From: Escherichia phage ECO103 4-12-1
Strand: one strand, 5' to 3'
Length of the DNA stretch: 64,000 bases
Sequence record: OR844650
Part shown: in pieces, positions 12,934 through 13,334 of the stretch
How positions within the stretch are numbered: the stretch's first letter is position 1
Layout: every line of letters starts with the position of its first letter
The notes under the pieces: model-generated
What the model saw: the letters and a program-made list of their open reading frames with translations, nothing else
Databases searched by the model: none
Told to the model about the DNA's origin: nothing
Made by a program: the position numbers and the translations under genes

Positions 12934-13124
12934 TAACATTTTATTCGTAATACCCCTTTATCGAAGTCGCTAAGGTTACCCGCCCTTTAGCCCCCTACGC
13001 ATTTTGCCATAGTCCAATCCCTTTTATTTCAAAAAAGTCAAGGGATTACCTATGCATTTTTTTAACGCATAATTTTAAAAACGCCTTGACTTTTTTCTGA
13101 ATCAGTACTAGATCCCTTTACGCA

Positions 13125-13334
13125 TTAATCCTTCGTTACGCTAACGATTATCTGTGTATCCCCGTAGTCCTGCCATACTTCCACGCCATCGGTCGCCCTG
13201 GTTAGTCGTGCTGTCATCTGCTTAATGGTCTTAGGCTTTAGTGGAACCTGTTGCAGTACTGTACGCATAGCATCATTGACGTTATCATGTACGCCTGCAA
13301 TAGTACCTAGAACGCTGTATACTGTATAGAACAT
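13125..13334 (-). CDS. hypothetical protein
   Basis: ORF track; AGGAGGG RBS. Confidence 0.55.
   Translation of the reverse strand: MFYTVYSVLGTIAGVHDNVNDAMRTVLQQVPLKPKTIKQMTARLTRATDGVEVWQDYGDTQIIVSVTKD

Follow-up and report, generated by a model that had tools for sequence, protein, structure and literature searches.

The genome of Escherichia phage ECO103 4-12-1 (sequence record OR844650) contains a 219-bp spacer (12906-13124) between the first gene of the LGTNYQE array and the gene upstream of it (13125-13334, - strand). Short boxes of the ACGCAT type recur in this spacer, and the question raised by the locus is whether they form binding sites for a regulator of the array. The whole stretch of 64,000 nucleotides in which the spacer lies, referred to below as the window, was analysed. 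With two jumbo coliphages of the genus Asteriusvirus (PBECO4/121Q group), vB_EcoM_G17 and Sharanji, it shares 99.4% identity. It comes from the early region, and all of its genes up to ~39.4 kb lie on the - strand and are read leftward. In an earlier note on this DNA, the ACGCAT boxes were taken for sites of cooperative regulator binding, and a longer box, CGCATTCTAACG, present elsewhere in the window, was considered to be related to them. The comparisons described here show that the longer box is a genuine conserved non-coding element belonging to the family of inverted repeat B of phage T5 and that it is unrelated to the ACGCAT boxes. The explanation favoured for the two features, the ACGCAT boxes being RNA arms, if they have any role, and the CGCATTCTAACG box a protein-bound DNA site, is considered to have an even chance of being correct.

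On the + strand, box 1 (TTACGCAT) was located at 13118-13125, box 2 (TAACGCAT) at 13063-13070, box 3 (CTATGCAT) at 13050-13057 and box 4 (CTACGCAT) at 12995-13002. On the - strand, these boxes read ATGCGT at 13120-13125 (box 1), 13070-13065 (box 2) and 13002-12997 (box 4) and ATGCAT at 13057-13052 (box 3); thus, their form on the transcribed strand is ATGCRT, a self-complementary hexamer. The boxes are where the earlier note had placed them, between the array promoter (12933-12906, - strand) and the stop codon of the upstream gene, but only boxes 1, 3 and 4 fit its pattern YTAYGCAT, which box 2 narrowly misses. The spacings are 55 bp between boxes 1 and 2, 13 bp between boxes 2 and 3 and 55 bp between boxes 3 and 4. 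Box 1 overlaps the final base of the TAA stop codon of the upstream gene (TAATGCGTAAAGGGA), and a supposed box 5 is the ATG CGT start codon of array gene 1 (12875-12870, - strand).

The cluster was statistically ordinary, so no function is required to account for it, and this weighs against any role of the boxes, including the one favoured below. The pattern YTAYGCAT was observed 13 times in the window, whereas 12.6 occurrences were expected, and it was therefore not enriched. If the motif is taken as given, three to four copies within 170 bp were reached in 1-8 of 300 dinucleotide shuffles. However, the motif had been picked after inspection, and 229 hexamers per strand occur three or more times, without overlap, in some 170-bp stretch of the window; because so many hexamers cluster as densely, the ACGCAT cluster is unexceptional, and it is also outside the 25 most extreme clustering hexamers of the window. 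Most of the 17 ATGCGT copies on the gene strand below 39.4 kb are coding or are Met-Arg start codons (for example, at 12875, 12675 and 17805). The comparison of motif frequency and placement with shuffles, which the earlier note had itself proposed as a control, thus went essentially against the cluster. Its proposed kinship with the longer box is refuted, since the profile of the longer element gave no match in 12906-13124 at E<=1000, and the two motifs have just the letters CGCAT in common.

The longer box was found at the sites given previously. Exact copies of CGCATTCTAACG are present at 21936, 26602 and 32758, that is, three against 0.08 expected (0 of 100 shuffles), and the inverted copy lies at 26662-26670, where nine bases agree before a 1-nt deletion. 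On the gene strand, the box reads CGTTAGAATGCG, and its consensus is CGTTAGAATGCG-WTNN-AGG-N-CGTTT. The element extends to approximately 30-40 nt and consists of three or four units that start with CG(T/A)T at 9-10 bp spacing; the gene-strand sequences are ...CGTTTATCT CGTTAGAATG CGTTACAGGA CGTTTACC for the copy W1, ...CGTTAAGGT CGTTAGAATG CGATTGAGAG CGTTTAAAG for W2 and ...CGTTAGAATG CGTCTGAGGC CGTTTTACG for W3. W1 (21919-21958, - strand; core CGTTAGAATGCG at 21947-21936; profile E=1.5e-10) is situated 37 nt past a terminator that has a Chi site in its stem (21995-22002), and its AGGA is the ribosome-binding site of the gene at 21721-21918. W2 (26584-26623, - strand; core at 26613-26602; E=2.9e-9) is abutted by a Chi site (26623-26630) and lies ~28 nt upstream of the -35 hexamer of one of the standard early promoters described below. 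In W3 (32741-32776, - strand; core at 32769-32758; E=2.3e-9), a second ATGCGT is located 10 bp upstream of the core, and an early promoter follows ~144 nt downstream. The inverted copy W4 (26653-26683, + strand; CGTTAGAAT-CGATTCTAGGCGG; E=0.016) is 1 nt shorter, contains the perfect palindrome TAGAATCGATTCTA and stands back to back with W2, with a Chi site next to it at 26685-26692. The divergent copy W5 (25215-25244, - strand; CGTTAGCGGTCGATTTAGGCCGCTTATATT; E=0.012), which is closest to inverted repeat B' of T5, separates two cistrons and begins 9 nt past the stop codon of one of them. All five copies are intergenic.

Chi sites (GCTGGTGG) are themselves abundant in this DNA: 15 were counted between 14335 and 54724 against 0.76 expected, and none of 100 shuffles reached 15. 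Nine are on the - strand (14.3-33.7 kb) and six on the + strand (26.7-54.7 kb), with back-to-back pairs at 26623/26685 and 33651/33663; those on the - strand face RecBCD entering from the nearby left genome end.

Outside the window, the element was searched for with the 19-base pattern CGTTAGAATGCGNNNNAGNNCGTTT, for which less than one chance match was estimated in the IMG/VR search. There, it was found in 32 stretches, which belonged only to T5-sized contigs, to one 96-kb contig with a T5-type copy and to 121Q (three copies). Among bacterial and archaeal genomes (596 Gbp), the pattern was matched once, on the 'Clostridia MAG' contig RZZU01000077.1 (L148, 3015 bp), which, carrying both T5-type copies, is evidently T5-like phage DNA. 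The possibility that the element is a host chromosomal site was rejected on the ground that the strict pattern is absent from these 596 Gbp save for the T5-like contig. Of the looser 14-base matches in IMG/VR, approximately half were chance or located in one conserved coding region (...RILTLEQLPDEE...), and these were discarded.

In T5 (AY587007), copies were located at the annotated inverted repeat B (5285-5310), at inverted repeat B' (6184-6209) and as an unannotated copy at 9271-9298, with the palindrome C terminator on one side and palindrome D on the other, within the left terminal repeat's annotated injection-stop region. The cores of the T5 copies are CGTTAGAATGCG, CGTCAGAAAGCG and CGTTAGAAAGCG. 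The core CGT(T/C)AGAA(T/A)GCG of this T5 element is present in the window, where W1-W3 have exactly CGTTAGAATGCG, and it is followed there by the same 3' extension, WT-NN-AGG-N-CG(T/C)TT with CG units in 10-bp phase, as found by the alignments and the profile. Both the window copies and the T5 copies are non-coding and lie in a long terminal repeat or first-expressed region; in phage vB_Ec-M-J, the counterparts of the regions studied here, among them the W1 and W2/W4 loci, are within the annotated direct terminal repeats, and the direct terminal repeat of Sharanji is reported to be 20.7 kb long (PMC11895373). A 43-nt query of the T5 type also matched T1-like Drexlerviridae (JLBYU19, 25/25 identical, and Veterinaerplatzvirus), the kuravirus Ptacy1479 and other contigs. 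Across these phages, the copies are intergenic in nearly all cases and often follow a terminator, as in Repeat Region 3 of T5, W1, W2, the kuravirus and two contigs (L038 and L114). Comparing 25 T5-like phages, Davison stressed that conservation is higher in these non-coding repeats than in the genes beside them and that no function is known for the repeats (bioRxiv 10.1101/866236), and the same statement on repeat conservation and unknown function is found in the paper on BF23 (PMC10644984). Nothing relevant was obtained from the literature for the sequence strings of the element or for promoters and regulators of Asteriusvirus. As a separate observation, T5 palindrome D, tACTGTATAAATATACAGTa (AY587007, 9330-9349; L139, 1054-1073), fits the LexA-box pattern CTGT-N8-ACAG.

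In two relatives of the window, the element is kept while the DNA around it has diverged. At the W2 locus of phage EJP2, the Chi site and W2 are kept at 45/48 positions and the W4 palindrome is kept, with flanks that are ~50% identical. At the W1 locus, phage A4 retains the core and CGTTTA and has bases of the W2 type at the variable positions; both flanks have been replaced, the downstream flank being a standard early promoter that begins 12 nt later. Thus, the core is under constraint at the level of its sequence while its surroundings are exchanged. In addition, the invariant positions (CGTTAGAA-GCG, AGG, CG-TT) and the variable ones (WTNN, N) coincide across independent copies and across phage families, and this identical position-specific pattern therefore indicates selection on the element sequence itself. 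The orientation relative to transcription is reversed in T1-like phages against Asteriusvirus and T5, which favours a site acting at the DNA level. Because the sequence is conserved while the orientation varies and the flanks are replaced, the best guess is a DNA site bound by a protein of the host or the phage, which would probably act on the strong early promoters often present downstream; the -35 hexamer of such a promoter follows within ~10-50 nt at W2, at the same locus in EJP2 and at the W1 locus in A4. The idea of a regulator site, advanced earlier for the longer box, is therefore upheld as to a conserved cis element with phased repeats and a promoter-upstream layout such as a protein-binding site would have, but a protein that binds it was not identified, and this is the first of several points that speak against the protein-binding interpretation. 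When the leftward open reading frames (ORFs) of the window (1-39.4 kb) were compared by tblastn with T5-like terminal-repeat loci (248 kb), no shared protein was found; the common binder, if any, should therefore be encoded elsewhere or be derived from the host. The distance to the next promoter varies from ~12 to 144 nt or more, and W5 and the T1-like copies are located between cistrons with no promoter nearby. A simpler role as a sigma70 promoter, with TAGAAT as the -10 hexamer, was rejected by inspection, no consistent -35 hexamer being present at 16-18 bp in either orientation.

An action of the CGTTAGAATGCG element at the level of RNA is unlikely; in early transcripts, it would then be a site of weak termination, of processing or of translational control by an operator. 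W5, inverted repeat B' of T5 and the kuravirus copy can form small hairpins of the GCG/CGC type with a U-rich tail, so that a role in RNA can be envisaged for these copies, which also counts against a DNA site. The JLBYU19 copy belongs to a hairpin, CGTTAGA/TCTAACG with U5 behind it, that comes immediately after a stop codon, and in W1 and in contigs L070 and L128, the next gene has the AGG(A/AGG) of the element as its ribosome-binding site. However, the orientation relative to transcription is opposite in the T1-like phages and in Asteriusvirus and T5, several copies are placed past a terminator and before the next promoter, in DNA that should give rise to little RNA, and no stem is common to all copies: it is the sequence that is conserved and not the ability to pair. 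Similarly doubtful is an origin of the element from mobile terminator-promoter cassettes that shuffle small early genes from phage to phage, in which case it would be a junction or scar kept by recombination and not by a function of its own. Its location at the boundaries of replaced flanks, beside ~40 promoter-hairpin cassettes, its presence in unrelated coliphages without shared neighbouring genes and the fact that the T5 copies flank a segment with an HNH-endonuclease insertion (Davison, bioRxiv 10.1101/866236) would agree with such an origin, but the pattern of invariant and variable bases, identical in independent copies and across phage families, points to selection on the sequence.

Very unlikely is a binding array for the host protein DeoR or a DeoR-like protein, by which early transcription or DNA handling of the phage would be linked to deoxynucleoside catabolism. 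The core GTTAGAAT is an exact 8-nt half-site of the E. coli deo operators deoO1 and deoO2, the E. coli sites being TGTTAGAATACTAACA, immediately before deoC, and GTTAGAATTCTAAC, ~600 bp upstream; W4 holds both half-sites in inverted arrangement, as TAGAATCGATTCTA, and in IMG/VR contig L023, GTTAGAATACGTCTAAC adjoins a copy of the element. DeoR acts as an octamer bridging several operators, and T5 both breaks down the DNA of its host and has a deoxynucleotidase among its pre-early genes. Nevertheless, the 16-bp palindrome TGTTAGAA-TTCTAACA is present with its native spacing in no phage copy (W4 has four extra central bases), the deo operators contain nothing that corresponds to the conserved GCG, AGG and CGTTT parts, and the strict pattern is absent from bacterial genomes. 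The resemblance of GTTAGAAT to the deo half-site may therefore be kept as a lead. A wider proposition, according to which the protein-binding element would be a common early-DNA signal of virulent linear-genome coliphages (T5-like, T1-like, kuravirus and Asteriusvirus) recognised by one host protein, possibly a DeoR-like one, is regarded as improbable. If it is true, the element would govern the DNA that enters first, through a pause of entry, protection of the end or the timing of strong early promoters, and its adjacency to Chi sites of the correct orientation in the jumbo phage and its location in the injection-stop region of T5 would be two views of one mechanism.

As for the ACGCAT boxes, their likeliest role, if they have any, is that of arms of RNA secondary structure, as suggested by predicted folds of the spacer. 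A long, 78-nt terminator-like hairpin with an A-tract and a U-tract is predicted at 13102-13025 (- strand). Its outer arms, AAAAAAGTCAAGG (13096-13084) and CCTTGACTTTTTT (13043-13031), are an inverted repeat that is perfect over 13 bp, its stem, GUCAAGG/CCUUGAC, is extended by A6/U6, and, from the A-run paired with the U-run at its base, it reaches an apex in which box 2 is paired with box 3. The computed energy was -23.6 kcal/mol (z = -5.9), and 0 of 200 shuffles were equally stable. This hairpin looks like a bidirectional terminator or insulator that would close the upstream operon.

A second set of predicted pairings involves the start of array gene 1, which is almost certainly the ATG at 12875 (MRIL...), preceded by AAGGGAG. 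In boxes 3 and 4, ATGCRTA precedes GGG, and both are complementary to CCCTATGCGT of the ribosome-binding region of this gene. A 23-nt inverted match of 83% was found between 13062-13040, which includes box 3, and the ribosome-binding region (12887-12865), and the corresponding duplex of -25.3 kcal/mol was matched in stability by 0.2% of shuffles (p = 0.002). The block around box 4, AAAATGCGTAGGGGG (12984-13008, - strand), is complementary to the translation-initiation region AAGGGAGTCCCTATGCGTATTTT (12865-12887, - strand), with a duplex of -22.4 kcal/mol, and the fold of 13008-12862 closes on this pairing (z = -3.1). The array promoter, which is of the sigma70 type (TTGACT-16-TAAAAT), is located between the two complementary arms, and because of this, only read-through RNA could mask the start site. 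According to this model, pairing of boxes 2 and 3 would cap the hairpin by which the upstream operon would be terminated or insulated at its end, read-through transcripts would fold the start site of array gene 1 away via boxes 3 and 4, and transcripts from the array promoter, which lack the upstream arm, would leave the start site open. We infer from the predicted folds both that such spacer RNAs exist and that their structures matter.

The spacer was compared in 15 relatives, 13 of which are taken in by alignment A1. Box 1 was invariant in 13/13 relatives and lost in A4, which has TAATGAAT in its place; the invariance is uninformative because the surrounding block is ~98% identical throughout. 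Box 2 is CAGCGT in four relatives (TH47, WPEC5, Turkey3 and CMSTMSU). Box 4, ATGCGT, together with its G-run, was kept in the 13/13 relatives of the alignment and is absent in EJP2, which has kept the promoter, the start region and several blocks and lacks both boxes 3 and 4. In A4, every box is absent, although parts of the spacer are retained. In JNE01 and Turkey5, the whole hairpin module has been replaced by a sequence that again carries ATGCAT boxes; both phages retain box 4 together with its G-run, as well as the blocks AGGGATTGGACTATG and GGGTAACCTTAGC.

In this lineage, RNA structure is plausible, and several results weigh against it. The start-site pairing is at the level of shuffles in JNE01 and Turkey5 (p ~0.27) and is gone in EJP2 (-3.5 kcal/mol). 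No clear covariation was seen when the pairing partners were swapped between lineages: the change of A:U to G:C in the helix of box 4 and the start region of JNE01/Turkey5 was considered as a candidate and rejected, since the swapped-partner energies do not favour the cognate pairs. The covariation term of RNAalifold was unfavourable (+1.93 kcal/mol). The hairpin at 13102-13025 has a 40-nt structured interior, and it was not called by the terminator scan, which covered loops of 3-8 nt. Finally, a functional terminator would cut the very read-through that the occlusion model needs.

These results make a chance origin of the ACGCAT cluster a serious rival, one that is considered possible with a probability well short of even. 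The boxes would then be functionless copies of a quasi-palindromic hexamer in an AT-rich, repeat-rich spacer, and two in-array boxes would simply be the Met-Arg start codons of the MRIL... paralogs. The absence of enrichment in the window, the many hexamers that cluster equally, the predominantly coding or start-codon location of the gene-strand copies below 39.4 kb, the loss of the boxes in EJP2 and A4 and of box 2 in four relatives, and the absence of significant BLAST relatives of the spacer elsewhere in the window all agree with this. What chance does not readily explain is that the hairpin (z = -5.9) and the start-region pairing (p = 0.002) exceed shuffles and that box 4 and its G-run were kept in the 80%-identical JNE01 and Turkey5 while neighbouring patches changed. 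The least supported interpretation is the one from which the question started, an array of operators cooperatively bound by a phage or host regulator of the array promoter, and it is judged improbable. Four similar boxes at 55/13/55-bp spacing do lie upstream of the promoter, an inverted fifth copy at +25 over the start codon would permit looping, TAYGCATW is close to the 8-bp palindrome TATGCATA, and the new middle of the spacer in JNE01 and Turkey5 bears ATGCAT boxes again. However, the statistics do not survive correction for the choice of the motif, the boxes are not conserved in EJP2, a distant relative that keeps the promoter, no additional sites were found beside other promoters in the 64 kb, and no candidate regulator was found; together with the loss of the boxes in A4, the CAGCGT variants of box 2 and the coincidence of the boxes with arms of predicted hairpins, this speaks against the cooperative binding proposed in the earlier note. 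RNA arms are thus retained as the preferred role of the boxes, should they have one.

Other explanations of the spacer were tried and rejected. The boxes are not decayed start regions of early promoters (TTTACAT / TGCATAGGGGG), as the spacer reached profile scores of only E=27 and 96; the array promoter itself, with E=27, is without the TTTACAT start region and the hairpin of the standard early promoters. A small protein gene was dismissed because the spacer has no conserved ORF and the ORF annotated in the SD phages was made by their 74-bp deletion. A relic of duplicated array genes was also dismissed, the above 23-nt inverted start-region match (E=0.35 for the whole window) being the only one given by sensitive self-BLAST. 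Over its full length, the window had no Rfam match that reached the gathering threshold, the best of the weak ones scoring 28 bits against a threshold of 80 bits, and no transfer RNA was found in it.

Several observations concern the spacer and its surroundings as such. The array promoter is within a 47-nt imperfect palindrome (12894-12940; 68% self-complementary, self-BLAST E=0.04). Among the relatives, the spacer is a rearrangement hot spot: a 74-bp deletion in the Salmonella SD phages removes the array promoter (L014, SD-15_S21, about 422-430); in PBECO4, a gene cassette of ~490 bp is inserted upstream of the array (L009, 563-928), its gene encoding 121 aa with its own promoter and no Pfam match; and in Turkey5 (L015), an 80-bp tandem duplication includes box 1.

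The standard early promoters mentioned above number ~40 and occur as near-identical cassettes at 13820-33900 (- strand), each before one or a few small genes. The layout is AAAAGTAC-TTGCAA/TTGACA, 16 nt, TATAAT, TTTACATCAAGG, a GGGGA...TCCCC hairpin and a ribosome-binding site; a profile built from 30 sites recovers ~40 sites at 13.9-33.9 kb. Because these promoters are of the sigma70 type, they are expected to be read by the host RNA polymerase. Beyond the early region, a tandem array of ~14 paralogous genes (39426-57211, + strand), each encoding ~360-440 aa and one encoding ~245 aa, begins at the switch of gene orientation and holds three + strand Chi sites (54204, 54459 and 54717). By far the strongest hexamer cluster of the window is that of TAGCCG(T), with five copies in ~100 bp (~33341-33440) within an ORF-free stretch of 1.5 kb (33056-34549); weak divergent promoter-like matches on the + strand (32866-32925 and 33088-33138) are near it. 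A second repeated intergenic element, CCCATAGGGTGCGG(A/G)AGTGTATCTAT, has two copies on the - strand (17145 and 30746), and CATAGGG occurs eight times between genes of the window and never within them.

It follows for further work that the ACGCAT cluster can be dropped as a lead to a regulator, representing at most hairpins that would insulate operons and mask a start site. The longer box, on the other hand, ties a repeat annotated only in the injection-stop and pre-early region of T5 to at least three other coliphage groups. The terminal-repeat elements of T5 have resisted genetics for decades, and a short, portable and widely shared core provides a concrete probe that may serve in pull-downs and be mutated in more tractable phages.

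With respect to known systems, the predicted start-site pairing resembles the translational occlusion of T4 gene e (lysozyme), soc and I-TevI, whose read-through transcripts are occluded and whose late promoter lies within the hairpin. In both cases, a segment upstream of the gene's own promoter is complementary to its ribosome-binding region, and the hairpin is possible only in transcripts begun further upstream. In contrast to T4, the arms in the spacer are not local but 110-165 nt apart and are known from predicted folds, the pairing is not kept in the most divergent relatives, and a terminator-like hairpin stands upstream of the 5' arm. The ~40 sigma70 promoters of the window, each with a stem-loop in the 5' untranslated region and flanking small early genes, are similar to the promoter-early stem-loop (PeSL) cassettes of T4-type phages, reportedly described by Arbiol et al. 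in 2010, and the elements studied here sit at cassette edges; however, the ACGCAT-box spacer holds no such cassette, and the CGTTAGAATGCG element forms a module of its own, upstream of the cassettes. For this element, the comparison is with T5 inverted repeats B and B'. The phages differ, T5 belonging to Demerecviridae and the window to a jumbo myovirus of Asteriusvirus, with no neighbouring genes in common; the DnaA-box-rich inverted repeats C and D around the T5 copies were not seen beside the window copies, and, to our knowledge and in the literature searched, there is no report that Asteriusvirus phages inject their DNA in two steps. Nonetheless, in both, the same core is followed by (A/T)T..AGG.CG(T/C)TT, and the copies are non-coding, lie in the long direct terminal repeat or early region, often after a terminator, and include inverted pairs.

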